Positions 16,521-64,000 are shown, counted from the first letter of the stretch. The stretch is 64,000 bases of DNA from an uncultured Alphaproteobacteria bacterium (GCA_943789475.1 CALSUG010000005.1:90694-154693); one strand, 5' to 3'. Notes: generated from the sequence alone by a model not told the origin. Numbers and translations are program-made.

Positions 16521-16522
16521 AT

Positions 16523-19981: not shown

Positions 19982-20075
19982 CAATTAAGTATGTTGATTC
20001 ACATCAGTTCTGGTGTGGATGTCTTTGTAAAAATATAACTTTGTCACGTTTCGTGACGTATTCAGGATTAAGATT

Positions 20076-28682: not shown

Positions 28683-28713
28683 TTTAAATCAAGGCTTTCA
28701 GGGGAATAAGAGT

Positions 28714-28732
28714 AAGGGGTCGTTGGTTCAAT
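28714..28732 (+). repeat. degenerate partial copy of the tRNA-Val variable/T-arm region
   Basis: AAGGGGTCgtTGGTTCAAT versus tRNA 28647-28665 AAGGGGTCacTGGTTCAAT (17/19 identical). Confidence 0.6.
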
Positions 28733-28743
28733 TTGAACCATGT

Positions 28744-45629: not shown

Positions 45630-47825
45630 ATGAAGTCGGTATTTTTACGTGTAAAAAAATCAAAAGGTAATATTTTTGCTATGCTATTTGCAGCTGTCGG
45701 AATGACAGGTGTCCTTGGTGTCGTGGGGATGCAGACAGTGTCTGGACCGATTACCACGATCACAAAGGTAACGCAAAAAAATATTGTTGATACTGATTTG
45801 ATGACAAATGCCCGTATCGTTATTTTGAACGCAGGAATACAAGCCGCGGGCGGAGATTCAGATGGTGATAATTACGTTGAACCAGCGGCGCATAATACAA
45901 CATGTACGGCAAATCCAACGGGTGGTGGGTGTTTGCCAACGGATATTGGTGCGATTCAAACCGACCCATGGGGGACGTCATACGGATATTGTGTATGGGA
46001 TCATGGTTTAACAACAGGCTCCGCAAACAGATTAGAAGGTAAAGATAGTACCTCAGAACCCGTTATTGCGATTATTTCTGCGGGACGTGATAAAACATTC
46101 CAGACATCGTGTGAACCATTTGATGGTAGTGCACCAGAAGGATTACAACAAGTCGCAGGAAGTGACGACAGTGTTCGTATTTATTCGTATGACGCCGCGG
46201 TTGCAGGTGCAAATGGCCTGTGGCAATTAAAAACAAATGATCCAACAACGGCCGAAATCGTGAAGGATTTGGAAATTGGTACATTTGATGATGTTGCGGG
46301 TACAGGTTTTGGTTTTGATATTGGATCGGGTGAAAGTAAATTCCCGATTGTTTTTACAGACAATTTAAATGCATGGACATCGAACCATATTGCCGTGACA
46401 GGTGGCGTTCAATTGGATACACAAGCCAATGTGACCGCATGTGGTGCCGGTGATGCAGGGGCCATTCGTTATAATTCAGTAGCTGAAGTTATCGAGGTAT
46501 GTGACGGTGCTGGTGACTGGGATGGTGCGGATGAAACGGCGATCATTGACGAAGACGGCGATACAAAGGTTCAAGTCGAAGAAGGCGCCGACGACGACAC
46601 AATCCGTTTTGATACCGCGGGTACAGAGCGGATGGTTATTCATGATAGTGGTAAAGTTGGAATAGGTTCTAACAATACAACGAGCCATAAGCTCCTTGTT
46701 TCTTCATCAGGTGCAGATAATACTACTTTAGGGATTGCTGCAACTGGTACTGGTTACGCAGGGTTATATATTGATGCCATGAATGGCGATTTTGTAGGGA
46801 CCGATTATGGGATGTTGAATCAACGTGATGATGGTGTCTTACATCTAACGAATGCCGGCCCTAATAGTCTTCTTTTAAGGACGGATAATACCGATAGGGT
46901 TGATATTCAAGGTGATGGTGATGTTGCCGTTAACGGTACTGATTTATTCGTTGATGCATCTACAAATCGTGTTGGTGTGGGGACGATAACGCCTGAGAGA
47001 ACCTTAGATGTTGCTGGTGATGCACGTTTGCAACAAAATACTTATATTGGTACATCGGCGGATAATCACGGTTTAATTTCATACTCACCTAATATCGGTG
47101 GTGGTGAACCAGGGGTTATTTTACAAGGTGATACGGGTAAAGGCGTATTAATACGTGGTGATAATGGAGCCTCGACAGGTATGATTGTCAAAGTTAATGG
47201 CCGTGTTGGTATTGGAACGGTTTCTCCTGCCACAACTTTAGAGGTACAAGGAGGATCAATTTATCATCTGAACAGTGCTGGTACAGGGAGAGTTCGCCTT
47301 CATCATGGTACTTCATATGGTACAGTTGGTAGTGTTTCTAATACAAAATTTGCACTTAGAACGAATAATACGGATAAATTGACAGTATTGCCGGATGGTA
47401 ACGTGGGTATTGGTGAAATCAATCCCGATACACTTCTTGATGTTGACGGTCCGATCGAAATTGGCTCTGGTACATGTAATGTCAGTGGTCATGGTCGTTT
47501 GCAATATACGGCATTGGACAATATCCAATATTGTAATGGGGCGTCATGGCAAACAATTACGGGTTATGTCGACAGTTTGAATGATATTGGTGACGTTAAT
47601 GTTACGGGTGTTACAATTGGACAAACATTAATGTGGGATGGTACCGATTGGGTCGCGACAAGCACATTGAACGATGTTGGTACGGGTGATACTGACCTGT
47701 TGGTTGATAACGATAATGATACCAAGGTTCAGGTGGAAAAAAATGCGGATGAAGATTATATCCGTTTTGATACCGCGGGAAGTGAGCGTATGCACATCGC
47801 ACCAAAATGGTCGTATTGGTATTAA
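45630..47825 (+). CDS. pseudopilin-headed tail-fibre-like surface protein, N-terminal part (continues in another frame after 47807)
   Basis: N-terminus KKSKG-NIFAMLFAAVGMTGVLGVVGM (pilin/TadG-like hydrophobic leader). Also the GspG-like globular signature DPWGTSYGYCVW...VIAIISAGRDKTF, and the repeated motifs DGDTKVQVEEGADDDTIRFDTAGTERM and G.IRYN......E.CDG..W. Confidence 0.6.
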   Translation: MKSVFLRVKKSKGNIFAMLFAAVGMTGVLGVVGMQTVSGPITTITKVTQKNIVDTDLMTNARIVILNAGIQAAGGDSDGDNYVEPAAHNTTCTANPTGGGCLPTDIGAIQTDPWGTSYGYCVWDHGLTTGSANRLEGKDSTSEPVIAIISAGRDKTFQTSCEPFDGSAPEGLQQVAGSDDSVRIYSYDAAVAGANGLWQLKTNDPTTAEIVKDLEIGTFDDVAGTGFGFDIGSGESKFPIVFTDNLNAWTSNHIAVTGGVQLDTQANVTACGAGDAGAIRYNSVAEVIEVCDGAGDWDGADETAIIDEDGDTKVQVEEGADDDTIRFDTAGTERMVIHDSGKVGIGSNNTTSHKLLVSSSGADNTTLGIAATGTGYAGLYIDAMNGDFVGTDYGMLNQRDDGVLHLTNAGPNSLLLRTDNTDRVDIQGDGDVAVNGTDLFVDASTNRVGVGTITPERTLDVAGDARLQQNTYIGTSADNHGLISYSPNIGGGEPGVILQGDTGKGVLIRGDNGASTGMIVKVNGRVGIGTVSPATTLEVQGGSIYHLNSAGTGRVRLHHGTSYGTVGSVSNTKFALRTNNTDKLTVLPDGNVGIGEINPDTLLDVDGPIEIGSGTCNVSGHGRLQYTALDNIQYCNGASWQTITGYVDSLNDIGDVNVTGVTIGQTLMWDGTDWVATSTLNDVGTGDTDLLVDNDNDTKVQVEKNADEDYIRFDTAGSERMHIAPKWSYWY

Positions 47826-50800
47826 TCAAGATTTTGATACGACAGATAACGAAGCAACGGTTGCGATTACGGCATCGGCCGCAACATCAACAGGCGTTGC
47901 GATTAAAACAACAACGAATACGAATGCTGGTGCGGATCTTCATATGCATGCTTCAGGAGTGATCGCCGCGGATAATAATGTGACAGTGTTGATAGATGGT
48001 GAAAATTCTTCTACAGTTAGATATTTTGAAATTTCGAAAGATGCAAAGTTTAGGGATGGATCGCAAGAGCGTTTAATGCGTATTCAAGAAAATGGTCAAG
48101 CTCGTTTTTATAGTGATAGTTCTGCTATCATTAATTTAGAGCATACTTCGGCATCTGGCCAAAATAGGTATAGTCAATATGAAATGGGAGATCAAGACAC
48201 ACCTGTAACATGGGCTATGGGAGCGTATAGCCAAAACAATTTAACAGCATCAGCTCGAAATGATTTTTATATTTGGCAATATGTAGATCAAGCAAATTCG
48301 TCGGTTAATGTTCCTCGATTTTTGATTGATGATACAGGAAAAATTGGAATAGGAACTAATGCCCCTGCGGCTGCTCTTGATGTTTCTGGTACGGATGCTA
48401 TCTTGTTCCCACGTGGTATTGTGGGTAATCGTCCTGCGGCGCCTGTAAACGGTATGATGCGTTATAATACGGCCACGGGTAAATTTGAGGCGTACCAAGG
48501 TGGCGCATGGCAAGATATTTTGACATCGGGTGCGGGTAATGTTGCACACGCACTTGCCGATGCCGATAATGATACAAAAGTTCAGGTGGAAGAAAGTGCG
48601 GATGATGACACAATCCGTTTTGATACTGCGGGCGTTGAGCGGATGCGTATTGAGTCAAATGGTTGGGTTGAGATTAATAATCCGGCTCTGTCAAATGATG
48701 CAATTCAGTTTGAACCTCAATCTGGGTTTCACAGAATTGCAATGAACGATTTACGTCTTTATGATTGGAACCAAGCGATTTCGGGTGATTTGGCACGATT
48801 TAATAATGGTAAAATCGCATTGGGTGGTATTGACCAAGATGGTAGAGTAACGATTACAGGTGCAGCAGATATTGGCGCGGCAAATACCGTGGGGCAAGGT
48901 GCTCTTGTTATTCAGGATTCTGCTGGAGATGCGTCTGGTTGGAAATTACGCATAGATCCAAATGAAATGCAGGTTTCGAATAATGGTTCTGCATCAAGTT
49001 TACATTTAAATGCATTCGGTGGGGATGTATTGATTGGTAATGGATCTAACAATCTGGATTTGAAATCAGGGAAAATTGTCAATGTGGGTAATCCAACCGC
49101 GGCTCAGGACGCTGCGACAAAAAATTATGTTGATAATGCGATCGCGGGTGGTGATACTGATACAATCGATGGGTTGGATTCAACACAGTTCATTCGCTCT
49201 GATGCAGATGATAATGTGACGGGGCATACCGAATGGCAAGACAATAAAAGTGTCAGATTTGGTAATGGTGCAGATTTTCGTATTTGGCATGATGGTACTA
49301 ACCATGTTATGCGGAGCTATAAACATGGCGCACAAGTTTATCTTCAAGGTGAAGATGCTGGGGGAACAAATCGTACTATGATCTGGTTTGATCCTGATAA
49401 TGAAACACGTCTTTATTATCGAGGTGCTGAAAAGTTGAATACCCGCAGTAATGGTATTGAGGTGACTGGTGAAATATATGGTGCCGGATCGCATTACTAC
49501 GGTGATAATAAAGAAATCATTGGTTATAGTGATAGCTGGCTTCGTTTAAATCAAGCAGGTCATTTTTCAAGTGGTGTGTACACACCAGGTTTGTTCAGAG
49601 CCGACAATGGATTTCAAGTTGACGGCAATACGATTATTAACGGTTCAGGTACTGTAACTGGATCACGTGTTGGTAGTGGTGTTAATGGTGACAATATAAC
49701 TGATGGCACGATTGATAGTTCGGAAATACAAAATAATACGATCACTGAAGACGATATTATTGACAGCTTTAAGGCTAGGGACGCAGATAAGCTTGATGGG
49801 CTCAGTTCTGGTAGTTTCATTCGCTCTGATGCAGATGATAATGTGACGGGGCATACCGAATGGCAAGACAATAAAAGTGTCAGATTTGGTAATGGTGCAG
49901 ATTTTCGTATTTGGCATGATGGTAGTAACCATGTTATGCGGAGCTATAAACATGGCGCACGTTGGTATTTACAGGGTGAACATGCGGGGGGAACAAATCG
50001 TAATATGATTATCGCAGACCCTGATGATAGTGTTTACATGTATTATCAAAATGCCGAAAAACTGAGAACATCGCCCTCTGGTGTAGACGTTAGAAATGCA
50101 GTTAATGTTATTGGCGCGACATCAGGTAACGAAGGTGGTGAAATGCGTCTCTATACTTCTGATCCATATGATAGCACGTATGATTATTATCGTATTGATG
50201 CATTTCAGGATGATTTCCGAATTGGGCGGACATCGATTGGTGATGACTTTGTTTTGAAAAATACTGGTAACATTGGTATCGGTACGGATACGCCAGCAGA
50301 AAGACTTCACGTCAATGGTAATATTCTTGTGTCGCCTCATCATCCATATCTCAGGCTGCATGGCCCTGTAGGTAATGCATCTTTGGATATGAATGGCCCT
50401 AACGCCACAAAATCTTTCAGGATGCACTATGGTAATTCTGCTGACAATGTAGTTCGTTTTGGGCGCTTTTCGAATAATTTTATTTCTTGGGAGGCAAATC
50501 CAGTTGTGTTTGATCTGGATGCACCAAACGCCACCTTGAAATTAAGTGGAACTGGTAATGTCGGAATTGGAGTTATTGGGGCAGCCCCATCGCAAAAACT
50601 TCACGTCAATGGTAATATTCTTGCGTCGTCTTATCTGCACTCATCCGACCGTCGTTTGAAAAAGGATATCCGTGATATCGATAATCCATTTGACTTGTTG
50701 GATGCGATCCACGGTAAACATTTTGGATGGAAAAAGGATGATAAGACAGAATATGGTGTGATCGCACAAGATGTTCAAAGTGTGATGCCAGAAGCGGTTG

Positions 50801-51042
50801 TTGAAAGTGGCGATGGCTTTTTGGCCGTTGAATATGACCAATTGATTGCACCAGTGATCGAGGCGGTGAAACATGTTCGCGATATGGTTGTTGATGTGAT
50901 TGGCAAGGTTGAATCGTTGCTATCTCGTGTTGATGCATTGGAAAAAGAAAATGAGCGATTGCGCTCTGAAATCGATGCGTTAAAGTCATCAAGTGAAACA
51001 ATTTTGAATCGTCTGGAGGCGTTAGAAAAAAATGAAAAATAA
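47674..51042 (+). CDS. tail-fibre-like protein with C-terminal peptidase-S74 intramolecular chaperone domain (C-terminal part of the same gene; the real frame entry is near 47806)
   Basis: From NGRIGIN (47806) the repeat pattern of the upstream ORF continues. There are two T7-like fibre modules (FIRSDADDNVTGHTEWQDNKSVRFGNGADFRIWHDG.NHVMRSY...). The C-terminus reads SDRRLKKDIRDI...GVIAQDVQSVMPEAV...VEYDQLIAPVIEAVK, followed by a coiled coil. Confidence 0.65.
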   Translation: MLVRVILTCWLITIMIPRFRWKKMRMKIISVLIPREVSVCTSHQNGRIGINQDFDTTDNEATVAITASAATSTGVAIKTTTNTNAGADLHMHASGVIAADNNVTVLIDGENSSTVRYFEISKDAKFRDGSQERLMRIQENGQARFYSDSSAIINLEHTSASGQNRYSQYEMGDQDTPVTWAMGAYSQNNLTASARNDFYIWQYVDQANSSVNVPRFLIDDTGKIGIGTNAPAAALDVSGTDAILFPRGIVGNRPAAPVNGMMRYNTATGKFEAYQGGAWQDILTSGAGNVAHALADADNDTKVQVEESADDDTIRFDTAGVERMRIESNGWVEINNPALSNDAIQFEPQSGFHRIAMNDLRLYDWNQAISGDLARFNNGKIALGGIDQDGRVTITGAADIGAANTVGQGALVIQDSAGDASGWKLRIDPNEMQVSNNGSASSLHLNAFGGDVLIGNGSNNLDLKSGKIVNVGNPTAAQDAATKNYVDNAIAGGDTDTIDGLDSTQFIRSDADDNVTGHTEWQDNKSVRFGNGADFRIWHDGTNHVMRSYKHGAQVYLQGEDAGGTNRTMIWFDPDNETRLYYRGAEKLNTRSNGIEVTGEIYGAGSHYYGDNKEIIGYSDSWLRLNQAGHFSSGVYTPGLFRADNGFQVDGNTIINGSGTVTGSRVGSGVNGDNITDGTIDSSEIQNNTITEDDIIDSFKARDADKLDGLSSGSFIRSDADDNVTGHTEWQDNKSVRFGNGADFRIWHDGSNHVMRSYKHGARWYLQGEHAGGTNRNMIIADPDDSVYMYYQNAEKLRTSPSGVDVRNAVNVIGATSGNEGGEMRLYTSDPYDSTYDYYRIDAFQDDFRIGRTSIGDDFVLKNTGNIGIGTDTPAERLHVNGNILVSPHHPYLRLHGPVGNASLDMNGPNATKSFRMHYGNSADNVVRFGRFSNNFISWEANPVVFDLDAPNATLKLSGTGNVGIGVIGAAPSQKLHVNGNILASSYLHSSDRRLKKDIRDIDNPFDLLDAIHGKHFGWKKDDKTEYGVIAQDVQSVMPEAVVESGDGFLAVEYDQLIAPVIEAVKHVRDMVVDVIGKVESLLSRVDALEKENERLRSEIDALKSSSETILNRLEALEKNEK
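49189..49334 (+). repeat. intragenic direct repeat, copy 1
   Basis: 146 nt, identical to 49816-49961 except for one base (c/g). Confidence 0.9.
49816..49961 (+). repeat. intragenic direct repeat, copy 2
   Basis: Offset from copy 1 is 627 nt (209 codons, in frame). Confidence 0.9.
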
Positions 51043-52117
51043 AACATCTTTCTTTTTCCTGTTATGTGGATTTGTGATGATTTTATCACATGGGGTGATG
51101 GCCGCATGTTCATCACCATCTGGCTCTGCATCACAAACACGATATGACTTTGGTGCAAATAAATACTATTTCTGTGATAATACGGATTGGGTTGAAATTG
51201 GCGGCGGCGGCGGCGGTGATGGCGGCAGTGGATCTTGTGGATTGCCATGGGGGGGAACCATTGCAGATGGCGCGAACGTGACCGCGTATCAGCAAGCCTT
51301 ACCAAGTGGAGTAGCATGTGTTTCAGAAACCCGTATTTGCAGTAGCGGTGCTTTGTCAGGGTCTTATTTAAATCCTAGTTGTAACAATGGGTGTGCAGGT
51401 GGAACGATGGTTAGCTGGTCAAATTGTTCTGCAATTCGAATAAATGCAACACATGGCCAGAATAGAAACGTATCAGATCCAAGTCCAGGATATTGTCAGT
51501 CTGGTTGGTATGGTAGTCGTTCGTTTAGTTGTTCTAATGGAAGTTGGAGTGCTACAAATAGTGGAACTTGTTCATACCAAAGCATTGAGAGAGATTGTGG
51601 CAGTTGTTTTGCGGCGGGTAGTACGGTTTTGATGGCGGATGGTACGCATAAAGCAATTGAAGATATCAAAATCGGTGAATATTTGATGGGATCGGATGGC
51701 AAACCAACACGTGTGGTCGAATATGACCGCCCGATTATGGAATATCGCGATGGCGACCCACAACGTTTGATTTCGATCAATGATAAAGGGTATTTAATGA
51801 CGAATAACCACCCTGTTTTAACAACAGATGGATGGAAGGCCCTGTGGGTTGACGGTGCAGAATCCGAAGCCTATGATTTGTTAAAAGGCAAAGTATCTCA
51901 ATTGGATATTGGTGATGAAATCATCATGGCTGGCGATAAAACAATGATTGTTGAAACAATCAATGTTTTACAACATACCGAGGATACACGCCTTTATAAC
52001 TTTGTCTTGGACGGTGACCCTGTGTTTTATGTCGATGGTATGGCGGTGATGAGCTTTGTTCCGGATAAGGCGGGTAAATACACGGCTCACCTCGAACATG
52101 AAGGTGAACCGAAATAG
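51032..52117 (+). CDS. secreted Cys-rich protein with C-terminal Hint (Hedgehog/intein-like) autoprocessing domain
   Basis: Signal peptide MKNKTSFFFLLCGFVMILSHGVMA. Cys-rich N-terminal half carrying the same RY(D/N)...FCD..W motif as the fibre gene, and a poly-Gly linker. Hint block A CFAAGSTVLMADGTHKAIEDIKIGEYL and block B TNNHPVLTTDGW are present, with no terminal HN. The start overlaps the fibre gene stop by 11 nt. Confidence 0.65.
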   Translation: MKNKTSFFFLLCGFVMILSHGVMAACSSPSGSASQTRYDFGANKYYFCDNTDWVEIGGGGGGDGGSGSCGLPWGGTIADGANVTAYQQALPSGVACVSETRICSSGALSGSYLNPSCNNGCAGGTMVSWSNCSAIRINATHGQNRNVSDPSPGYCQSGWYGSRSFSCSNGSWSATNSGTCSYQSIERDCGSCFAAGSTVLMADGTHKAIEDIKIGEYLMGSDGKPTRVVEYDRPIMEYRDGDPQRLISINDKGYLMTNNHPVLTTDGWKALWVDGAESEAYDLLKGKVSQLDIGDEIIMAGDKTMIVETINVLQHTEDTRLYNFVLDGDPVFYVDGMAVMSFVPDKAGKYTAHLEHEGEPK

Positions 52118-54648: not shown

Positions 54649-54734
54649 GGAGGGATGGTCGAGTGGTTAATGGCAGCGGATTGTAACTCCGCCTTCTTCG
54701 GAATACGCAGGTTCGAATCCTGCTCCCTCCACCA
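54649..54734 (+). tRNA. tRNA-Tyr (anticodon GUA)
   Basis: Acceptor GGAGGGA/TCCCTCC, anticodon stem GCGGA/TCCGC with loop TT-GTA-AC, the long variable arm typical of bacterial tRNA-Tyr, T-loop GGTTCGAATCC, encoded CCA. Confidence 0.9.
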
Positions 54735-54768
54735 TTAAGTCTTTGATTTAAGACACATAGAGAATTTT
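54729..54768 (+). repeat. direct repeat DR-L (tRNA-Tyr 3' end plus 34 nt)
   Basis: CCACCATTAAGTCTTTGATTTAAGACACATAGAGAATTTT; 38/40 identical to 59872-59911. Confidence 0.85.
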
Positions 54769-54778
54769 CGTCCCACAG

Positions 54779-54802
54779 CCCCGCCGTCCGCGGGGTTTTT
54801 GT
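54779..54802 (+). terminator. rho-independent terminator after tRNA-Tyr
   Basis: CCCCGC-CGTCC-GCGGGG-TTTTTG. Lies within a 67-nt segment present only in the left repeat copy. Confidence 0.65.
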
Positions 54803-55033
54803 TTGTCTGTGATCTGGGGACACGCGGAGAATTCCATTTTCATGGCGAAAACCATCAATATTCTCCATGGCCATTTCCAACGTGTCTCGAGATTAATTTC
54901 CCTGCTAACAGGGAATTAACAGGGTAAATTTTATTTTTTAATGTGGTTTCGAATAAGCGATAACTTCACACGCATTGATACGCCTGCATTTGAGAGTTTA
55001 ATGCCGTAAAATTAACAGGGAAATAGCAAGGAA

Positions 55034-55627
55034 TTACATCGCCATTAATGTATCGAAACTACGCATGATGATTTGACCAACACTGGCTTTCGAGACACCT
55101 TCACGTTCAGCAATCGCTTTCATAGACAAACCGTTGAAATGTTCATCTCTCCACAAAACACCGCGAACCAAATTTTTGAGTTGTTGAGGTGGTAAATCAA
55201 GAGGGTCATCGATATTATCTGATTTTATAACGACCGCGCCTTTGTATGATTTTTGTGTCTTGAATGATGTTTCAATAGTCATTGTTTCTTGGAAGGCATT
55301 CGTTGGAATATTCATTTTAAATAATGTTTCGAAATAGCTTTTTAATTTTGAAACACTGAGGGTGATGTTAATTTGATCGACGCTAATAACGATCCTGTTA
55401 ATGCATGTTTTAATAATGTCATTTGTATCAATAACATCTGTGTTTTTGACGATGTAGGACAGTGTTTCAGAGTTATCATCATCAATATTGAAAATATCCG
55501 ATAGTAACCTTTCTGACATTATTTTGGCTTCGGTAGATCTTGATACATGTTTTTCAATTTCATGTGCGGGTAGGCGGTTCAAAGTCCTTTCAGGGTGGTC
55601 TTTATCTTGAATGGTGTTTTGGCTCAC
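55034..55627 (-). pseudogene. C-terminal remnant of a large serine recombinase (catalytic resolvase domain absent)
   Basis: RLPAHEIEKHV..., INRIVISVDQINITLSV... and LVRGVLWRDEHFNGLSMKAIAEREGVSKASVGQIIMRS resemble the C-terminal tail of alphaproteobacterial island serine recombinases (from memory). No S-R catalytic N-domain is found in any frame upstream. Confidence 0.45.
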
Positions 55628-55798
55628 ATAATAACGTTATGGCTCAAGTGCTATTAATTTAGGATGCGTTCCTAAAGCCAGTGCAGGATTTGTAGGAACA
55701 AAAATTGCTTTTACACGTGTCCCAGAAAAGAGTGAATTTATCTAGTGATTGCTTTAAGTATTTTCTTGTTAAAATAGCTTGCCCTTTATTCGTCTGTA

Positions 55799-55815
55799 AT
55801 GTTATATCATAACAT
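55799..55815 (+). promoter_or_regulatory. Zur-box-like palindrome abutting the zur start codon
   Basis: ATGTTAT-ATC-ATAACAT is a perfect 7-3-7 inverted repeat of the TGTTAT/ATAACA type, ending 1 nt before the ATG at 55816. Confidence 0.6.
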
Positions 55816-56220
55816 ATGAGTAATTGTGATTTTATAACATCTGCGCAAAAATATTGTTTAAACAACGGTTTGAGGCTTACAGCTCCGAGACTTTATGTTC
55901 TATCTATATTGGGAAACGAAAATGAACCTATGGGTGCATATGATGTTTTAAAAAAATTATCCCTGTATATTAAAACCCCTAAACCACCGACGGTTTATCG
56001 TGCTCTCGATTTTTGGCAAAAACATGGCTTTGTTCATAAGATTGAAAGCCTGAACGCATTTATCACTCGTCACGAAAATTATCAAGATAAAGACACGCAC
56101 TTCCTTGTTTGTGATGGTTGTAATTCAGTTCAAGAATTGCACGATATTAGAGACACTAATCATCATAAAAATATACCAACCGAAAGGGTCATATCCTCAA
56201 AAGGATCCGATACCTGTTAA
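55816..56220 (+). CDS. zur: Fur-family zinc uptake regulator
   Basis: LTAPRLYVLSIL..., GAYDVLKKL, PPTVYRALDFWQKHGFVHKIESLNAFI and FLVCDGCNSVQEL parallel E. coli Zur. The second CxxC pair is missing because the ORF ends ...GSDTC*. Confidence 0.75.
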   Translation: MSNCDFITSAQKYCLNNGLRLTAPRLYVLSILGNENEPMGAYDVLKKLSLYIKTPKPPTVYRALDFWQKHGFVHKIESLNAFITRHENYQDKDTHFLVCDGCNSVQELHDIRDTNHHKNIPTERVISSKGSDTC

Positions 56221-56767
56221 ACCAACAGACAATGATACTAATTCAGATAAAAACCCTAAAGCAGAGGGGCAGAGGGAATCGCCAAAAGATGATGAAGGAA
56301 AGGAAACTCCTCAAACACATGATGGGTGTGGCCCAAACTGTGATTGTGGCAAGGCGTTTGCACAAGCTAATGATCCCGCAAGTAGCTTGCAAAAGTTAAA
56401 AGAAGACATGTTGAATATTTTAGGAAAAGAGGGACATGGGGCAGTGTCACCTAAAGAACTCCAAGATACTCTTATCACAAAAATGAATGAGATGACGCAG
56501 AGTCAGAAAATGGCGCTAACACTTGAGGTTGCACACGATCATTTTAATGGTGATATCGGTAAAGCCAAAGGGCATCTTCAAGGTGTTCAAGACAACTTAG
56601 ATTTGGATAAGAGGCAACAAGGTGCAAATAAAGCGTCTAATAAAACTGAGACTGAATCTTATTTAAGGCAGCATTTTGGGGATTCAAAATCTCCGAATAA
56701 AACATTTGATAAACAAGCAAAAAGCGGTAAAAGACCGCCGCCAAAGGCACAAACACTTGATATTTAA
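56105..56767 (+). CDS. hypothetical charged protein with a Cys/His cluster (start uncertain)
   Basis: The track ORF overlaps zur by 116 nt in another frame. Contains THDGCGPNCDCG. The earliest non-overlapping ATG is near 56408 (MLNILGKEGHG). Confidence 0.35.
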   Translation: MFVMVVIQFKNCTILETLIIIKIYQPKGSYPQKDPIPVKPTDNDTNSDKNPKAEGQRESPKDDEGKETPQTHDGCGPNCDCGKAFAQANDPASSLQKLKEDMLNILGKEGHGAVSPKELQDTLITKMNEMTQSQKMALTLEVAHDHFNGDIGKAKGHLQGVQDNLDLDKRQQGANKASNKTETESYLRQHFGDSKSPNKTFDKQAKSGKRPPPKAQTLDI

Positions 56768-56780
56768 AAAGGAGTAAGAG

Positions 56781-57371
56781 ATGAAATCAAACATGAGGCT
56801 TGTTGGAATAGTTCCAATTACCAGCAGAAATAAAAGTGATGTTGATATTTTAAAAAACTGTGGCGATACCGATGCTGACTCACAGGCTATATCTAAATTA
56901 CGGAATGGTAGTGCAAAACACTTAACCGAGGGTGTTACCTTAATGCCTTATAATGACGGTTTAGGATTGTCCCTATGGTCACCTATCGGAGATGATGACC
57001 CACATAAAATTATAGGCATTTATAACGAGCTTTCATTAAAGGGTGATACTTTGGTTAAAGTTCCCCAAAAATTATTAATTGGGCGTGACGCAAAATTTGT
57101 CGTGATTATCGAAAGCGACTGTACATGCTGTGCAGAAAAACATGTTTTAATTGTTGAGGCAGATGGTGAAAAGCCTGTAACTCATAAAAAATATAGTCCT
57201 CTTGAAAATCCAGATGTTGGTCATGATTTTAATATAGCATTCCCGGGTTCATCATTTGATATTACTGGTGAAGAAATAGCACACGCACTATCAGAATTGA
57301 AGAAAACACCTCAATCACCTATACAAACACCAAGGTCACGAAAAAATTGGTTTAGTTTGGGACGAAAATGA
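56781..57371 (+). CDS. hypothetical protein of the zur operon
   Basis: 196-aa ORF with RBS AAAGGAGTAAGAG-ATG. Contains a CTCC motif. No family recognised. Confidence 0.5.
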   Translation: MKSNMRLVGIVPITSRNKSDVDILKNCGDTDADSQAISKLRNGSAKHLTEGVTLMPYNDGLGLSLWSPIGDDDPHKIIGIYNELSLKGDTLVKVPQKLLIGRDAKFVVIIESDCTCCAEKHVLIVEADGEKPVTHKKYSPLENPDVGHDFNIAFPGSSFDITGEEIAHALSELKKTPQSPIQTPRSRKNWFSLGRK

Positions 57372-57414
57372 ATACACTTAAATTAATCAAAAAATCGTAT
57401 GAAGGATCAATAGA

Positions 57415-58032
57415 ATGATTAGATTGAATTCTATTCACTATGAAATAGATAGTAAGAAGATATTAGAGGATGTTTCTTTATCTTTAACGTCAGAAAATAA
57501 CCATCTTCTTATCCATGGCCCCTCAGGTTGTGGAAAATCAACTCTCATGCACATCATGGCTGGATTGTTAAAACCAACGTCAGGATCCATACAATTTAAT
57601 GAGAAAAAATATGCAGATCTTTCTGCATCCTACCTTGATCGCTTGCGTAGTAAAAATTTTGGTTTCGTCTTTCAAAAAATACACTTAATTGGTCACTTGA
57701 CCGCTAAACAGAATATTCAAATATCAAACTCTCATGAAATAGATTTGAAGATTACGGATGATCTTGGTGTTACCAATCTTCTTGATCAAAAGGCATCTTC
57801 GTTAAGTGTTGGAGAGGCACAGCGTGTTGCTCTTGTCAGGGCTCTTTCAAATAAACCATCGATTATATTCGCTGATGAACCAACATCTGCGCTAGATAGA
57901 AAAAATGCTGATAACATGATGAATATGCTTTTAACGAAAGCGAGCGAATACAAATTCAACCTTATTGTGACAAGTCATGATGAACGCATTCAATCACATT
58001 TTGATAACAAGTTAGATTTAAGCCATGAATAA
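57415..58032 (+). CDS. ABC transporter ATP-binding protein (MacB/LolD-type)
   Basis: Walker A GPSGCGKSTL, signature LSVGEAQRVALVRAL, Walker B IIFADEPTSALD. Confidence 0.9.
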   Translation: MIRLNSIHYEIDSKKILEDVSLSLTSENNHLLIHGPSGCGKSTLMHIMAGLLKPTSGSIQFNEKKYADLSASYLDRLRSKNFGFVFQKIHLIGHLTAKQNIQISNSHEIDLKITDDLGVTNLLDQKASSLSVGEAQRVALVRALSNKPSIIFADEPTSALDRKNADNMMNMLLTKASEYKFNLIVTSHDERIQSHFDNKLDLSHE

Positions 58033-59278
58033 TATGACATACATCCTCTCATCATTACGAAGCCGTTTATTAGGAAGTATATTAACTGTGATGTTAACGG
58101 CATTCGGCGTAGCCATGGCACTAATTATTCTTTTATTTGTAAACCATGTTCAAACACGTGTATTACACGATGCGCAAAATGTAGATATTGTTGTGAGTGG
58201 AAAGGGGAGTCCTCTACAGATAATCCTATCATCCATTTATCACATTGATACTCCCACAGGTAATATTCCATGGGGTGAGGCAAAAATGCTGATGAATCAT
58301 CCTCAGATCAAAAAATCGGCCCCCTTGGCATTGGGCGATAATTGGAATGGACATCGTATTGTTGGTACAACACCTGATTATATAGACTTTTATCAGACGA
58401 AATTGACTGAAGGGCGGTTGTGGAGTCAACCATTTCAAGCAATTATTGGGGCGGATGTCGATTTAAATATGGGGAATACATTTGCCGGTGCGCACGGCTT
58501 GGAACATAGTGGTCATGCCCATGACGAAAACGAAAACAAATATGTCGTTGTTGGAAAGCTGGAATACACAGGAACAGTTTTAGATCGCTTAATTTTAACC
58601 TCGTTAGATAGTGTTTTAGAAATGCATGGATTTGAAAACATTGAATTCCATGATGATCACGAGGAAAAGCATGACGATCACTCTCATCATTCACACGAGG
58701 GACACGCGCATGGTGGAGAAGAAGATCATAAGAAGTTAAATGAACCTGAAGTTACTGCGCTACTACTTCAAACGAAAACTCCGTTGGCGAATATGAGGTT
58801 ACCCAGAATTATTAATAGCAATAGTAATTTACAAGCAGCCAATCCCGCCATTGAAATGGCACGTTTAACATCAATGCTTGGTATTGGGACAAAGACCATG
58901 GCTGCTGTATCTATGACACTTTTAACGATTGCCTGCTTTAGCATATTTTCAGGTATTGCTGGCACTCTTGAAAACCGCAAAACCGACTTGGCGATATTGC
59001 GTGCCTTTGGTTATTCCCGTTATCGTATATTTAAAATTGTTGCGGGAGAAGGGGTATTGTTAACTCTAATCGGTATGAGTTTAGGTGGCCTCCTATCATT
59101 CGTTGGATTTGAGTATCTTACACAAGTTGTTTCATCATTATCGGGTAGCGGTGCAACATATCATTTTATCCCTGAAATGTTGTATATCTACGGTGGAGCT
59201 TTATTGGCAGGATTGTTTGCATCATTGATCCCAGCCTATCGCACAGGAAAGATTGATGTTGCAAAACAACTGAGTTAA
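58025..59278 (+). CDS. FtsX/MacB-type ABC permease with His-rich periplasmic insert
   Basis: 4-TM FtsX-like topology with a large loop between TM1 and TM2. The loop contains LEHSGHAHDENE and HDDHEEKHDDHSHHSHEGHAHGGEEDH. ATGA-type overlap with the ATPase gene. Confidence 0.85.
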   Translation: MNNMTYILSSLRSRLLGSILTVMLTAFGVAMALIILLFVNHVQTRVLHDAQNVDIVVSGKGSPLQIILSSIYHIDTPTGNIPWGEAKMLMNHPQIKKSAPLALGDNWNGHRIVGTTPDYIDFYQTKLTEGRLWSQPFQAIIGADVDLNMGNTFAGAHGLEHSGHAHDENENKYVVVGKLEYTGTVLDRLILTSLDSVLEMHGFENIEFHDDHEEKHDDHSHHSHEGHAHGGEEDHKKLNEPEVTALLLQTKTPLANMRLPRIINSNSNLQAANPAIEMARLTSMLGIGTKTMAAVSMTLLTIACFSIFSGIAGTLENRKTDLAILRAFGYSRYRIFKIVAGEGVLLTLIGMSLGGLLSFVGFEYLTQVVSSLSGSGATYHFIPEMLYIYGGALLAGLFASLIPAYRTGKIDVAKQLS

Positions 59279-59291
59279 ATTAACGACACTT

Positions 59292-59813
59292 ATGAAGTTG
59301 GTTATTTTTATTACCTGCGTATTTCTTTCATTCCAAGCAATGGCTTTGGAGGAACAAACGATCTATTCCAGTGAAATGTTTTCACTTGATGAAATTATTG
59401 GGCAAATAGATAATTTCACGAAAACCCCTGAAGGTGGAATTGATTGGAAACTTTTTTCTGAAACGAAAGAAGTTTCGTATAGCATCACTCGTAATAACGA
59501 TTTGTGGGAAGGTGTAAAACCAAAATTTTCGGATGAACTGAAAAAACTTGATGGCCAAAAAATAAAAATGTCTGGGTATATGTTTCCTCTTGATCAAACA
59601 GAAAAACAAAAAAACTTTTTATTAGGCCCGTTTCCATTAACTTGTCCGTATCATTCTCACTCACCTATCAATTTAACAATTGAAGCATATGCAAAAAATT
59701 CAATTCAATTTAGTTATGACGCTATAACCGTAGAAGGTATATTAGAGCTTGTTCCTCAAGATTTTGAATATAATACATTTTATCGTTTGAAAGATGCTGT
59801 GATTACAAATTAA
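59292..59813 (+). CDS. DUF3299-family periplasmic protein
   Basis: Signal peptide. LDGQKIKMSGYMFPLDQTEKQKNFLLGPFPLTCPYHSHSP fits the DUF3299 pattern found with MacB-like Zur-regulated transporters. Confidence 0.65.
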   Translation: MKLVIFITCVFLSFQAMALEEQTIYSSEMFSLDEIIGQIDNFTKTPEGGIDWKLFSETKEVSYSITRNNDLWEGVKPKFSDELKKLDGQKIKMSGYMFPLDQTEKQKNFLLGPFPLTCPYHSHSPINLTIEAYAKNSIQFSYDAITVEGILELVPQDFEYNTFYRLKDAVITN

Positions 59814-59871
59814 TGCCAGCAATCGTAAGGTTAAGAAGTTGGAGAGAATGCTTGTAGATTGACTTCATACA

Positions 59872-59911
59872 CCACCATTAAGTCTTTGATTGAAGATACA
59901 TAGAGAATTTT
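59872..59911 (+). repeat. direct repeat DR-R
   Basis: CCACCATTAAGTCTTTGATTGAAGATACATAGAGAATTTT. A weaker continuation at 59912-59937 matches 54836-54862. Confidence 0.85.
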
Positions 59912-59999: not shown

Positions 60000-60251
60000 T
60001 TAACCACCGACGATTGCAGAGAAAAAAGATATTTGATCTTCATCATTAATTGTAAACTGAGGCGGTTTGATTTCGTTATTAACGGCGGTGTATATAATAT
60101 TACGTTTTTTAAATACAGTTGCACATTCGGGTTTGTTTTCCTCTAGATAATCCATAAGATTTTCTATGTTTTTTATATGGTTAGGAAGTTTTATTAAATC
60201 TTCATGTTTTCCTGTTTTTTCGTGTAACCATGTTAAATACTGTATTTTCAT
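60000..60251 (-). CDS. MoaD/ThiS-family ubiquitin-like sulfur-carrier protein (C-terminal GG)
   Basis: 83 aa ending ...TAVNNEIKPPQFTINDEDQISFFSAIVGG*. This aligns by eye with the E. coli MoaD C-terminus AAVNQTLVSFDHPLTDGDEVAFFPPVTGG. Confidence 0.7.
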   Translation of the reverse strand: MKIQYLTWLHEKTGKHEDLIKLPNHIKNIENLMDYLEENKPECATVFKKRNIIYTAVNNEIKPPQFTINDEDQISFFSAIVGG

Positions 60252-60263
60252 GTTTTGTGCTCC

Positions 60264-61007
60264 CTATGTTGACGCAGAAAGTTTTTTATCTATTGCGACT
60301 TTTAAATTGTGCCAATAAATGGTGTTTTCGAATTCAAATTTTTTATTATTAGTGTATTGATCGAGTTGAACCGTTTTCAGTAACGAAATAGCGTCTTCTT
60401 TTTTTTGTTCAATTTTATTAAAGGGAAGCCATTTTCGTAGTCCATTTGTTTCACTTTTATAATCTTTTGCGAAGTGACGTATGCCGGTGTCATAGAAACG
60501 TTCTTTATAAAAACAGTTTTTGTAAAAATAATTTAATTTTACTTTCAGTTCACTAGAGATGATGGTTTCATTTTCTGCTTTTTGTAATGTTTTACGAATG
60601 TCGACCATAGCATCAGAGAGTGGTTTATAACCTAATTCCTGTGGAGAATGTAAAATTGCAACTTCATCATCATCTTCAATAACACCATGGGTGTAATCGT
60701 GATATATTTCGCCAACACCGATCATGCCAAAGTTGTCTAATTCAGCAGCACGTAAAGCCCCCATGCTGGCTGCGCCAAATATTTTTATATTTTGGGACAG
60801 GAGATATAGAATTTCCTTGTGCCAAGGAGATGGTATGCGTTCAAAATTACCATCAATTAATCCTATGATTCTAGGTTTATATTTTTTGTAAGCTTGATAC
60901 ATGTCACCTTGCATAGCCGGGGGTAAGTAGGTGGCGTTATTAAGGTGTTTTTGCGCCTCTTCAATTGAAATGCTAGGCCCTCTAAAAATTACTATGTCAC
61001 TTTGCAT
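60264..61007 (-). CDS. tfuA: TfuA-like protein
   Basis: IFRGPSI, LPPAMQGDMY, IGLIDGNFERIPSPWHKEILYLL, FGAASMGALRAAELDNFGMIGVGEIY and DDDEVAILH are the TfuA family pattern. Confidence 0.8.
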   Translation of the reverse strand: MQSDIVIFRGPSISIEEAQKHLNNATYLPPAMQGDMYQAYKKYKPRIIGLIDGNFERIPSPWHKEILYLLSQNIKIFGAASMGALRAAELDNFGMIGVGEIYHDYTHGVIEDDDEVAILHSPQELGYKPLSDAMVDIRKTLQKAENETIISSELKVKLNYFYKNCFYKERFYDTGIRHFAKDYKSETNGLRKWLPFNKIEQKKEDAISLLKTVQLDQYTNNKKFEFENTIYWHNLKVAIDKKLSAST

Positions 61008-62218
61008 GCGCCAACTCCATATTGTTCATAAAATTTTAATCCTCTTGCACCTAATAAACGTTTTCCTGGTGCTGTAATGCCTTCAGCGCCAGGTATAACA
61101 ATTTTTACAACTGGAATATCGTATTTTATTTTTGTTAAATTAGCGTAGAACGCATTGTCTAGTCCTGCCTTTTCGAGTTGGCATAGTGTGTAGTCTTGAT
61201 CCTCTTCTAAACTTTTAAAGTCAGTGCAGAGAATGTCGTTAAATGATTTTAATGTATCTTTGTCGACGTTTTTTAACTCGTTTAACCATGAGTTGTAGAT
61301 ATCGTTAGATGTTTCATTCTCGTAAACTTCATGATATTGATCGTCTCTTGCTCCTGCAATAAAAGTTACACGACTTTGGGCGGCCTCTGTAATCGCTCTG
61401 GAAATGGCGATTATTTTGTTGGGGTGTGTACCACTTCCGTAAGCTGGACGAATACCAGTATTATCATTAGATATAATTTTACAAAGAAAAGTCGGAATGC
61501 CAATGTCATTTGTGATATCCCATATTCCAACCAGAATATTTTTGTCTATTAGTTTACTAAGAATAGTTTTCAAATAGTTATCTGTAATTGTGTCCGTATC
61601 AATTCTATTCTTATTGTGTAACTCTGGTGGAGTTAATTGCCATAGAGCGAGACAATCTCTCTCGATTACTTCATAGAGGCCATGGTTGATGGCCTCTGTA
61701 AGGGTGTTACCAGAGGCTAATCCATTACTGTCTGCAATGAAATATCCAGCATCTTTAGGAGTAGGAATCGTGAATTCAGTATGTATTAGTTCATAGGGAA
61801 GCCAAATAGGTGAATTGTTTCTAACACTGTGACATTCAACCCATTGGATGATTGTTTTTTCATTGAAATCCTTCTGAGAAGATCTAGACAAGAGGTGATA
61901 ATCATATTGGTTTTTTAACGCATCATGACTGTCTGTAATAGTTTTTAATTCTATATTTTCGGAATGAAAACTTTCTATTGATTCCATGATGCCGGATACT
62001 TTTGCGGCATTAACAGAGTGACCTTTTCCTTGTGAGATGGCTAAAGATTTTGAATTTGGACGACAAACACCAATCACGGGAATTCCTATATTATCAAGCC
62101 CTGTAAGATTGGCGACACGTGTGATGCCCATATCTTTAAAAAAGGGGGATATTTTTTTTAATGTTTGTTCCGGGGCACAGTGTCTGTGCGTGCCATTTGT
62201 GTATTGTTTTAATTGCAT
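60992..62218 (-). CDS. ycaO: YcaO-family ATP-dependent amide-activating enzyme (TfuA-associated type)
   Basis: HRHCAPEQTL, GITRVANLTGLDNIGIPV, CRPNS, SQGKGHSVNAAKVSGIMESIESFHSE and SNGLASGNTLTEAINHGLYEVIERD. Overlaps tfuA by 16 nt. Confidence 0.85.
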   Translation of the reverse strand: MQLKQYTNGTHRHCAPEQTLKKISPFFKDMGITRVANLTGLDNIGIPVIGVCRPNSKSLAISQGKGHSVNAAKVSGIMESIESFHSENIELKTITDSHDALKNQYDYHLLSRSSQKDFNEKTIIQWVECHSVRNNSPIWLPYELIHTEFTIPTPKDAGYFIADSNGLASGNTLTEAINHGLYEVIERDCLALWQLTPPELHNKNRIDTDTITDNYLKTILSKLIDKNILVGIWDITNDIGIPTFLCKIISNDNTGIRPAYGSGTHPNKIIAISRAITEAAQSRVTFIAGARDDQYHEVYENETSNDIYNSWLNELKNVDKDTLKSFNDILCTDFKSLEEDQDYTLCQLEKAGLDNAFYANLTKIKYDIPVVKIVIPGAEGITAPGKRLLGARGLKFYEQYGVGACKVT

Positions 62219-62228
62219 AATGGAAGGT

Positions 62229-62263
62229 GCGCACCATATTTCAAAAATAGAAAAATGGTGCGC
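62229..62263 (-). promoter_or_regulatory. 9-bp-stem hairpin between the small ORF and ycaO
   Basis: GCGCACCAT-(17 nt)-ATGGTGCGC is a perfect inverted repeat ending 10 nt before the ycaO ATG. Confidence 0.5.
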
Positions 62264-62271
62264 TTTATTTG

Positions 62272-62364
62272 TTATTTAATGTCCATGGCTTCAAAGCGAT
62301 GTGCAGATGATTCTTGTATATAAGAATTTTTTAGAACAATTTTCTGTGTGTTATTTTTTTTCAT
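62272..62364 (-). CDS. candidate RiPP precursor peptide (30 aa)
   Basis: Found by hand: MKKNNTQKIVLKNSYIQESSAHRFEAMDIK*. RBS AGGAAAG lies 5 nt upstream of the ATG. Same strand as ycaO and 53 nt upstream of it. Confidence 0.45.
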   Translation of the reverse strand: MKKNNTQKIVLKNSYIQESSAHRFEAMDIK

Positions 62365-62498
62365 TTGTCTTTCCTTTTTGTTGTTGCTGGATGCCTTGTT
62401 GCAACCTACAGTTGTATAAAAACATAAAAATAAAATTAACTAAATATGTTTTTTAAAATTTTAAGAAAATGTGAAGGGAAATATAGAAGTGAGGAGAA

Positions 62499-64000
62499 TT
62501 AGTGCATAAATTTGTATGCGCTTCGGCATTTTTCAATTAGAGGTTTTAAGTTTAATTGTTGAGCAATTGAAAAAGATTTTTGTAAATATTCTTTGGGGTT
62601 TTTATGCAATTCATTTTCGTCAATTTCTAGAGAGACTTCACTGATTTGAAACAGATCGTAGTAAATAAGTGCCAGATAATTTTCGTTGTTTTGTTCTAAA
62701 GCTATTTTTTCTGCACTATGTAGAATATCAATGGCAATACGATTCATTCCCATAGAAGAATAAGCCTTTGCCATAAGTATTTTATAATATGGGACGCTCC
62801 CCATATAACCGTTTTCTTCATTGAAAGAGATGCATTCATTAAATAATTCTATAGCTTTTAAAGTCTGGCCAAAGAAGAAGAGGTTATGTGCATATTGTGA
62901 TAATATATGCGGTGAAATAACACCAATTTTGAAATCTCGATTTAAAATGTACGCTTTCTCGATTAAGGGCTTCGCCTCTTTATATTGCCCAAGTCTATGT
63001 AATGATTCAGCAGTAAAGGTTAATGTATGAATTTTTTGAGGACCGTCTTCCATAAGATTTACCTCTTTGATATTCTCTTTGATACATTTTAATGCATTGC
63101 TTTCATCTCCTAGTGCTGCGTAATCTATAGATAACAATACAGAACAAGCAATTCTTGTCGGTGAGAATGCTCGATCTCTCCAGAGTTTTTCTTTTTTAAT
63201 GTCATTTAGAAGATTTTTTGTAGCTTTAATACTTTCAATATGCTCTCCTATGTCGGAAAGCATACCAGACAGACGGGAGCGATCAGTAAAAAAGGATGAA
63301 GTTTGGGGTAATCTTTCTAATAAATCTGTGATGTATTTTTTGCTATAGTTTCCGCTCATCCATTTTATTTGTATTTCTAATCCTAGGATTTGATAATATT
63401 GCTGATCTGTATTTTCTTTTTTATTACTTTTTGTTTGATTAAAAATATCTTGTGCAACATTTAACCTCCCTTGCATAAGCAGAGAGTAACAATAATCAAC
63501 TTGAAGTTTAAAATAAGAAGGATTGTGTGTTAATAAGGATTTTTTAAATGCATCAAAAGCTCTTGTGAAAAATATTTCTGATTTATTTGGTTGTGCATTT
63601 TTTAATAATTTTCGAGCGGTAAACGTTAAATATTGTATGCTTTCTCTATATGATTCAGCGGAATAATAATGGTATCCAGCTAGCCCAATATTCTCGTTGT
63701 TTTTTATATTTTTCTGCTAAAGTTAAGTGCCACGCCCATCGCTCATTCTTTATATTGTTTTGGTAGATGCGATTGTATTGGAGATCATGTTTAAAGAAAT
63801 AATTCTTTTCATCGATACTGTGTTCAATAATGTTTTTATTAGTTAAGTTTGATAACGTGTAATGAATATATTCTTTATATTCTGGCAGTAGACAGAGTAA
63901 ATCGGTGTAGTTAAAAATTTTTCCGATTATGGAAGCCGCCTTTAGTATGGTTTGTTCGATATCACTTAGTGACGATAAAATAATATCATAAAGTTCTTCA
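62499..64000 (-). pseudogene. large ATPase/TPR-type (MalT/LuxR-like architecture) regulator; 5' end beyond the window, frame broken once at a T6 run
   Basis: The track ORF 62499..63476 is TPR-like. The same frame stays open upstream to 63716 with no start codon (…NIGLAGYHYYSAESYRESIQYL…). From 63717 to 64000 a different frame reads EELYDIILSSLSDIEQTILKAASIIGKIFNYTDLL…ERWAWHLTLAEKYKK. The two frames join across the T6 run at 63700-63705. Confidence 0.5.

Follow-up and report, generated by a model that had tools for sequence, protein, structure and literature searches.

The window analysed here, a 64,000-nt stretch from an uncultured Alphaproteobacteria bacterium (GCA_943789475.1, CALSUG010000005.1:90694-154693), carries near one end a compact minus-strand operon encoding a small peptide, a YcaO protein, a TfuA protein and a MoaD/ThiS-like sulfur-carrier protein. 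We consider it likely, from the gene content and its conservation, that this is a thioamidation operon for a peptide made on the ribosome and then modified post-translationally (RiPP), in which a dedicated protein sulfur relay would act on the 30-residue peptide. A preliminary description of this DNA had listed four same-strand genes separated by -16, 12 and 53 nt, the first of them a 30-codon open reading frame (ORF) with a good ribosome-binding site. All four minus-strand ORFs and their spacings were recovered (53 nt between the peptide gene and ycaO, a 16-nt overlap of ycaO with tfuA, and 12 nt between tfuA and the carrier gene), as was the ribosome-binding site. The features of the operon and its upstream flank are as follows.

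62272..62364, minus strand: precursor-peptide gene, 30 aa, with an AGGAAAG Shine-Dalgarno sequence
62229..62263, minus strand: stem-loop in the gap from the peptide gene to ycaO (GCGCACCAT...ATGGTGCGC), a predicted fold
60992..62218, minus strand: YcaO, 408 aa, of the TfuA-associated type (PF02624)
60264..61007, minus strand: TfuA, 247 aa (PF07812)
60000..60251, minus strand: MoaD/ThiS-like beta-grasp sulfur-carrier protein, 83 aa, with C-terminal VGG (PF02597)
62398..62416, minus strand: near-palindromic motif CAACTGTAGGTTGCAAC, a possible operator or promoter element, conserved in the window and in related loci L016 and L088
62499..64000, minus strand: STAND gene, C-terminal two thirds, encoding a P-loop (NB-ARC/AAA_16) and TPR repeats; it runs past the window end

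The profile searches proposed in the preliminary description bore out its family assignments, with the YcaO, TfuA and ThiS families all matched, and the motifs that it quoted are present: GITRVANLTGLDNIGIPVIGVCRPNS in the YcaO; GDMY, IDGNF and SMGALRAAEL in the TfuA; and GG at the C-terminus of the 83-aa protein. The YcaO matches PF02624 with an E value of 7.6e-70, and its top NCBIfam model is TIGR03266, the McrA thioamidation YcaO (232 bits; equivalog cutoff 365). Scores are lower against the SagD-type model TIGR03604 (130 bits, cutoff 219) and the E. coli-type model NF040716 (30 bits, cutoff 700), and among solved structures the methanogen YcaO homologue MJ1094 comes closest (6pe3, E 1.8e-31). 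The S-x3-E-x2-E motif (S75, E79, E82), which we take to bind ATP and Mg, is invariant in the YcaO alignment, and the protein is proposed to be an ATP-dependent activator of a backbone amide. The TfuA matches PF07812 (E 7.5e-44) and NF033432, ThioGly_TfuA_rel (210.7 bits; equivalog cutoff 235.2), with TfuA 6xp8 as its closest solved structure (E 6.9e-33). The overlap of the tfuA start with the ycaO stop by 16 nt, identical in L001, L007, L016, L087 and L088, suggests that the two genes are translationally coupled.

The 83-aa protein scores 37.2 bits against PF02597 (ThiS; cutoff 22.5) and aligns over its full length to the moaD model TIGR01682 with 42 bits, below the equivalog cutoff of 66; it is 19% identical to E. 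coli MoaD. Its AlphaFold2 model, predicted from a 12-row alignment, adopts a beta-grasp fold (predicted local distance difference test, pLDDT, 74), and the top Foldseek matches are E. coli MoaD chains (template modelling score, TM, 0.69-0.75; best 1fm0_D, TM 0.73-0.75). A search of ~5.8 billion protein clusters returned just 12 homologues of the carrier, at 63-100% identity. The C-terminal GG is invariant among 14 carrier homologues, and every homologue with readable context lies directly 3' of tfuA. The preliminary description had named a plain molybdenum-cofactor gene, paired with moaE in relatives, as the outcome that would count against a dedicated carrier; in relatives the gene is always linked to ycaO-tfuA, and moaE was found beside it neither in the window nor in any related locus. 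The earlier statement that the window lacks moa and thi genes also held, in that tblastn with E. coli MoaA-E and ThiCEFSGH gave no significant match there (the best was MoaD against the 83-aa gene, E 0.019; as a positive control, E. coli ThiF matched L010 at 4e-55). The reported lack of moeB is correct for the window itself, but a MoeB/ThiF-type activating enzyme (E1) sits ~0.9 kb past the window end.

This enzyme was located in metagenome contigs L010-L014 (n=5), which are 99.94-100% identical to the window and reach beyond its end. In the lineage of L010-L012, a gene for a 266-aa MoeB/ThiF-type E1, divergent from the STAND gene, lies at the equivalent of ~0.9-1.7 kb past the window end and is followed by rluA; the activating enzyme therefore exists in this genome. 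In L010 the E1 gene occupies 4563-5363. The L010 E1 scores 272 bits against the MoeB subfamily model (cutoff 266) and is 50% identical to the L001 E1, which reaches 22 bits on the SagC-type model (cutoff 188). Across the clusters, the E1s are 253-266 aa long and carry CxxC motifs; the E1 assigned to the window operon has no rhodanese domain. A remnant of ThiF 3' of the carrier gene in the window was also considered, and tblastn at E up to 1 found nothing there.

Related loci reveal that the carrier and its E1 travel with ycaO-tfuA. A MoeB/ThiF-type E1 accompanies the carrier in every sufficiently complete cluster whose YcaO is at least 52% identical to that of the window, and the E1 gene begins 3-7 nt after the carrier gene in L001, L003-L007, L016, L087 and L088. 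In L090, L094 and L095 (YcaO 52-58% identical) the order is instead ThiF, P-loop/TPR protein, small ORF, YcaO, TfuA and carrier. The carrier is kept in L017 and L018 (YcaO 48-49% identical), with a Crp-family regulator gene between tfuA and the carrier gene and no E1 nearby; more distant ycaO-tfuA pairs (YcaO 31-44% identical) had no linked carrier by tblastn. That gene order is shuffled yet the gene set is constant argues that carrier and E1 work with YcaO-TfuA. The idea of a self-contained four-gene cassette thus stands as regards the linkage of a dedicated carrier, but the set was drawn too narrowly, since the E1 and a conserved STAND/TPR gene also belong to it. YcaO identity within the carrier-linked clade is 52-80%, and the clade is rare, with ~14 protein clusters at a YcaO identity of 57% or more. 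Most clusters also include a ribbon-helix-helix (RHH_4) gene. A scan of a genome collection with narrow search patterns found at least one species representative, a metagenome-assembled genome (MAG) labelled uncultured Micavibrio sp., which is a lower bound. Viral contigs yielded no relatives of the cluster, and plasmids no match reaching 60% identity (best ~44%).

Immediately 5' of ycaO, an ORF of 23-36 codons with a Shine-Dalgarno sequence is present in 10/10 distinct related clusters, these being the clusters with DNA upstream of ycaO available for inspection. The encoded peptides are listed here by locus.

Window: MKKNNTQKIVLKNSYIQESSAHRFEAMDIK
L016: MKKENTQKVVLTNSSLKDAAAVHFGG
L088: MIENKFRKVVLNAGAMKNSAAVHAPRLNVK
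L001: MSQTKKIVLTETYIHTSASPFFYPTKVMK
L007: MSQTKKIVLTETYIHTSASPHFYSIEVLK
L003/L092: MINQRKIILKTSYIQMSASPYFHMMDVMK
L090: MTTRKKIVLTKSYIHKSASPFFEADKALG
L095: MKKTKLKKKIVVLMETYVQKSSAYAFEALKPVKSTA
L018: MKSIEVIFTDDEVEVASASTISRDV
L094: MTELVFINDELEYSGAGRFEPRL

For the first seven peptide variants, the ratio of nonsynonymous to synonymous change (pN/pS) is 0.22-0.95, and hence below 1 in 21/21 pairs, with an excess of third-position changes and with synonymous sites close to saturation. A profile of the peptide family matches these ORFs alone among 24,914 small ORFs of the fetched loci (runner-up E >3). When members were left out in turn, the window peptide was regained with an E value of 3.8e-8, and E values for three further groups were 1e-5 to 1e-7; the L088 peptide ranked first, but at an E value of just 0.33, and that of L018 was not regained. 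The peptides of independently found loci also fit the profile (L090, 3e-10; L095, 1e-4). All ten peptides share an ungapped motif, [IVLF]3-x7-[SAG]3, which in the window consists of the triad IVL, seven residues and the tract SSA; in 8/10 a Phe follows three residues past the tract. The strict form of this pattern has one background match among 11,894 distinct small ORFs. Together, pN/pS below 1, the family-specific profile and the shared motif identify the small ORF as a selected coding gene. Conservation of the small ORF beside orthologous ycaO-tfuA pairs, on which the preliminary description had staked its proposal, was accordingly found throughout, with purifying selection and a specific profile, and a genetically encoded precursor is conserved with its modifying enzyme, as is expected of a RiPP cluster. 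None of the ten peptides contains Cys. Ser occurs within the small-residue tract of most variants, and in L016 the tract is AAA, which offers no side-chain nucleophile and is therefore more in keeping with a reaction at the backbone than with azoline formation. The window peptide has no match in Pfam or NCBIfam.

The same ten loci have a strong predicted stem-loop 3' of the small ORF, ending ahead of ycaO (-14.4 to -24.9 kcal/mol, z score -2.6 to -7.4; in the window, 62229-62263, -20.3 kcal/mol, z -6.2). The onset of the hairpin is 7-20 nt past the small-ORF stop, and its sequence is unrelated from locus to locus. Its position, together with general knowledge of RiPP operons, suggests that the hairpin is probably a leaky terminator or transcript stabiliser governing how peptide mRNA is balanced against enzyme mRNA; alternatively, it could be part of an attenuator. 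Against Rfam, the leader region gave no known RNA element, the matches being three tRNAs only. A palindrome ~35 nt 5' of the peptide start reads CAACyrTArrTTGCAA in the window, L016 and L088, in intergenic DNA that is otherwise poorly conserved, and another palindrome occupies the equivalent place in L001, L007 and L003 (in L001 at about 7842-7860). The two palindrome types also split the clusters in two: the L001/L007/L003 subgroup adjoins the RHH_4 gene, and the window lineage has the E1 there.

Farther upstream, window ORF 62499-63476 is the C-terminal portion of a 748-aa STAND protein that combines a P-loop (NB-ARC/AAA_16) with TPR repeats; the gene is intact in L010-L012. In the window, a 1-nt insertion near 63687 splits the gene into two frames by tblastn, and the extra base is absent from four near-identical contigs. 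Comparison of the window with near-identical assemblies gave single-base indels, mostly in homopolymers, at 9/11 mismatched alignment columns, which points to errors of long-read assembly on one side or the other and makes sequencing error at least as likely as a real pseudogene. Positions at which the window and these contigs differ by a single base include 63687, 55549, 54269, 54037, 52897 and 52808. The STAND/TPR gene is kept 5' of the peptide gene in L001, L003/L092, L007, L090, L094 and L095. In L094, the homologue has an N-terminal nucleotide (adenylate/guanylate) cyclase domain, and Crp-family regulators that bind cyclic nucleotide monophosphates are encoded in or beside the ycaO-tfuA clusters of L094, L018 and Azospirillum, which hints at cyclic-nucleotide control of these clusters. 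The cyclase-domain and Crp-family genes of these distant members lie at 994-3879 and 8077-8751 in L094, 2881-3621 in L018, and 1229-3799 and 8054-8764 in L098 (Azospirillum). A role in anti-phage defence was considered and rejected on the absence of PADLOC matches: the STAND, YcaO, TfuA, carrier and RHH_4 proteins had no defence-system match, and the E1 had merely generic E1-domain similarity.

Gene identities, conserved linkage, the conservation and motif of the peptide, and the hairpin are what the sequences show; the chemistry, the modified site and the parts played by the hairpin and STAND protein are inferred. According to PMC13063428, YcaO activates a backbone amide with ATP and sulfide displaces the oxygen; in niches that are not rich in sulfide, YcaOs that form thioamides draw on a ThiS homologue in thiocarboxylated form together with a TfuA hydrolase (PMC13063428, citing Liu 2021). 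The sulfide donor given for archaeal TfuA in the preliminary description, thiocarboxylated ThiS, is thus stated in that paper, with TfuA hydrolysing it. For the present operon, the substrate would be the 30-aa product of 62272-62364. The E1 would adenylate the C-terminal Gly-Gly (Gly83) of the carrier, which a cellular persulfide source would turn into a thiocarboxylate. TfuA would hydrolyse the thiocarboxylate and pass sulfide to YcaO, which with ATP would activate a peptide backbone amide oxygen for replacement by sulfur, giving a thioamide. Based on the fixed spacing and the AAA variant, the modified site is most likely the small-residue tract (SSA in the window) exactly seven residues past the hydrophobic triad (IVL), with the triad as recognition element. 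The hairpin would probably keep peptide mRNA above enzyme mRNA, and the STAND/TPR protein encoded upstream is probably a regulator or sensor.

Several points weigh against this interpretation. The thioamide product, its mass shift and the enzyme activity are predictions. Neither YcaO nor TfuA reaches the equivalog cutoff of its archaeal model, so function is assigned at the family level only. The peptide motif was defined post hoc from the same sequences in which it is counted and is descriptive, and the L018 and L094 peptides belong to the family by motif and position, with no significant sequence similarity. Genes for a protease, an exporter or immunity are not conserved across the loci, which leaves maturation and export unexplained, and the ABC transporter next to the cluster is part of an islet of its own. 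A leader protease or exporter is common in RiPP clusters, although not universal. Should the STAND frameshift be real, and the STAND protein act as an activator, this strain could fail to express the operon. As for the purpose of the product, the thioamidated peptide might be a signal rather than an antibiotic, with the STAND/TPR protein as its receptor or sensor in a peptide-signalling circuit; in some variants the STAND protein has a nucleotide cyclase domain and a Crp-family regulator as companion. We hold this reading to be improbable.

Other readings of the same genes were also weighed. YcaO-TfuA may modify a folded cellular protein, such as McrA or uL16, with the small ORF serving as a leader peptide for attenuation at the hairpin. 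Protein thioamidation by YcaO enzymes is known (PMC13063428), a conserved protease or exporter is lacking, and, with the hairpin starting 7-11 nt past the stop in most loci, a terminating ribosome could influence its folding. We nevertheless regard this explanation as unlikely: selection acts at the amino-acid level over a 16-residue block with fixed spacing, which typical attenuator leaders do not need; no alternative antiterminator pairing was seen; and the window YcaO scores just 30 bits on the E. coli-type model, with its cutoff of 700. It is appreciably less probable that YcaO forms azoline heterocycles, or makes another ATP-dependent backbone change, at Ser/Thr of the peptide with no thioamide. 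Cyclodehydration is the best-known activity of the YcaO superfamily, the SagD-type model still gives 130 bits, and Ser is present in the tract of most variants, but the tract of L016 is AAA and the peptides are devoid of Cys. Moreover, no C-protein, ocin-ThiF partner or dehydrogenase is present, the E1 is of the MoeB type (the SagC-type model gives 22 bits on the L001 E1), and the co-conservation of TfuA, carrier and E1 indicates sulfur delivery.

Still more doubtful, to the point of being hardly credible, is the reading of carrier and E1 as ordinary molybdopterin or thiamin genes that merely adjoin ycaO-tfuA. In its favour, the best model for the carrier is moaD (42 bits), its best structural match is E. 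coli MoaD, and the E1 exceeds the MoeB subfamily cutoff. However, the carrier falls short of the moaD equivalog cutoff (42 vs 66), moaE, moaA-C and thi genes are absent from the window and from the vicinity of the carrier in related loci, the same genes stay together in shuffled order across lineages, and the carrier start lies at most 12 nt from the tfuA stop or overlaps it. Peptide thioamidation with a dedicated sulfur relay is preferred over these explanations.

Of the characterised systems, the archaeal YcaO-TfuA pair that makes the thioglycine of McrA is like the present one in its best models and structures (TIGR03266, NF033432, 6pe3 and 6xp8), in overlapping ycaO/tfuA frames, and in a ThiS/MoaD-type carrier that is presumed to donate the sulfur; archaeal ycaO-tfuA genes sometimes have thiF, moaD and moeB in their vicinity (PMC5589413, Nayak 2017). 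It differs in that here the predicted substrate is an operon-encoded 23-36-aa peptide, the host is bacterial, carrier and E1 are fixed in the cluster, the equivalog cutoffs are unmet (232 vs 365 and 211 vs 235), and there is no methanogen methyl-coenzyme M reductase (MCR) context. Actinobacterial YcaO-TfuA RiPPs, the thioamitides and thiovarsolins, share with it a precursor gene placed first, followed by YcaO and TfuA. Thioamitide cores are thioamidated over a run of small residues (Val-Met-Ala-Ala-Ala), resembling the [SAG]3 tract. The actinobacterial precursors are unrelated, however, and here there are no Cys, no aminovinyl-methylcysteine (AviMeCys), and no dehydratase, methyltransferase or acyl carrier protein (ACP) genes. 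Thioamitide macrocycle genes (decarboxylase, phosphotransferase/HopA1-like, methyltransferases) were found neither in the window cluster nor in related loci. In contrast to the actinobacteria, the present hosts are Gram-negative or uncultured, many from marine or coral metagenomes, and carry STAND/TPR and RHH_4 genes instead. Some actinobacterial TfuA clusters do include ThiS-like and MoeB genes (RiPPER networks 9/11/18, PMC6511847), and a figure legend of PMC8120280 describes an uncharacterised YcaO-TfuA family with ACP, ThiS-like and MoeB genes.

The nearest cultured relatives are on Azospirillum megaplasmids, such as A. lipoferum 4B plasmid AZO_p4 (L098), whose YcaO is 44% identical; such proteobacterial YcaOs are 41-46% identical. 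Directly 5' of ycaO, L098 has a small hypothetical ORF followed by an inverted repeat (recognised by eye, not folded), and its neighbourhood, like that of L094 and L018, includes genes for a ribbon-helix-helix protein, a cyclase-domain protein and a Crp-family regulator. The precursor layout may be common to a wider proteobacterial family. Unlike the window lineage, however, the Azospirillum megaplasmids have no ThiS-like or ThiF gene within 6 kb, and the small ORF encodes 65 aa with no significant similarity to the present peptides. This ORF, at L098 5637-5900, is annotated as a 65-aa hypothetical protein and contains a segment, EVQASTVRNL, loosely like EVASASTISRDV of L018.

With MoaD-MoeB and ThiS-ThiF pairs, the system has in common a beta-grasp protein with C-terminal GG, a MoeB-type E1 and, in most clusters, adjacency of their genes; here, however, MoaE, ThiG or another acceptor enzyme is absent and the partner is TfuA-YcaO. 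The E. coli-type YcaO that acts on uL16 likewise makes a backbone thioamide in Pseudomonadota (here predicted), but it does so on a protein substrate, with neither TfuA nor a nearby peptide gene (PMC13063428). Genome mining has catalogued 613 TfuA cluster families, mostly proteobacterial (PMC8120280). Since TfuA clusters with ThiS-like and MoeB genes were described before, the present system belongs to a known kind: the linkage of carrier and E1 to YcaO-TfuA has precedents in PMC6511847, PMC5589413 and the legend in PMC8120280, and no new kind of system is described here. What is new is a rare clade with an undescribed precursor family bearing a fixed-spacing motif, a constant carrier-E1 pair and a STAND/TPR partner; no description of this cluster type was found in the literature searched. 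If the interpretation is correct, five small genes (peptide, YcaO, TfuA, carrier and E1) would make up a self-sufficient, site-specific thioamidation kit that is independent of free sulfide and useful for the heterologous production of thioamide peptides. The seven-residue spacing from triad to tract would be a testable rule of substrate recognition for TfuA-type YcaO proteins, for which recognition of bacterial peptides is poorly understood, and to our knowledge the product would be the first thioamide RiPP from this type of cluster to be characterised in bacteria that are Gram-negative and largely uncultured.

The surroundings of the cluster are chromosomal DNA of a Gram-negative bacterium, with genes for dGTPase, ArgS, NagZ, ScpA, TatC, IspB, DusA, NuoD, MurA, AmgK and MlaC. 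As the preliminary description had noted, the cluster is more AT-rich than the core genes: its GC content is 0.32-0.36, compared to 0.41 for window positions 1-52000, or 5-9 points lower. The tRNA-Tyr island repeat reported next to the cluster is also real, and consists of the last 6 nt of tRNA-Tyr and 34 nt of flank, present at 54729-54768 and again at the following position.

59872..59911, plus strand: distal 40-nt tRNA-Tyr-flank direct repeat, 95% identical to 54729-54768

The distal copy lies 88 nt from the carrier stop, at the border of cluster and islet, but the repeat brackets a neighbouring 5.1-kb ABC-transporter islet (54729-59911) and not the YcaO cluster, and is therefore just indirect evidence for acquisition of the latter. 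Besides two hypothetical genes, the islet encodes a FUR-family regulator (55816-56220), an ABC ATPase, a MacB/FtsX permease with a His-rich loop (HDDHEEKHDDHSHHSHEGHAHGGEEDH) and DUF3299; it has no integrase gene and resembles a small metal-related transporter islet. The transporter genes (57415-59813: ABC ATPase, FtsX/MacB permease and DUF3299) were considered as an exporter for the cluster, an idea rejected because they lie within the repeat-bounded block and no other locus has them. Just past the RHH_4 gene, L003/L092 carries a gene for a serine recombinase, and another recombinase match, a weak one, occurs downstream in L003. The low GC content, the recombinases of L003/L092, an integrase element in L090 and the Micavibrio-labelled MAG fit horizontal transfer of the cluster without proving it. 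In L090 (region 12699-20493), the element adjoins the 58%-identical cluster and includes genes for DUF3631, an HTH/M78 peptidase pair, GIY-YIG and a tyrosine integrase.

Two other regions of the window may be mentioned. A tyrosine recombinase/integrase gene at 28744-29697 (minus strand) lies directly beside tRNA-Val (region 28608-29697) and is followed by a low-GC stretch (~29-36 kb, GC 0.34-0.39) that is probably a second integrated element. At 45630-51042, what is called as one 1803-aa gene on the source of L011 is represented by two ORFs (731 aa and 1122 aa) that overlap in different frames. The 1803-aa gene has weak PTL_trimer and Peptidase_S74 (tailspike-like) matches and is followed by a Hom_end_hint protein at 51032-52117; the split probably represents a further frameshift in the window.

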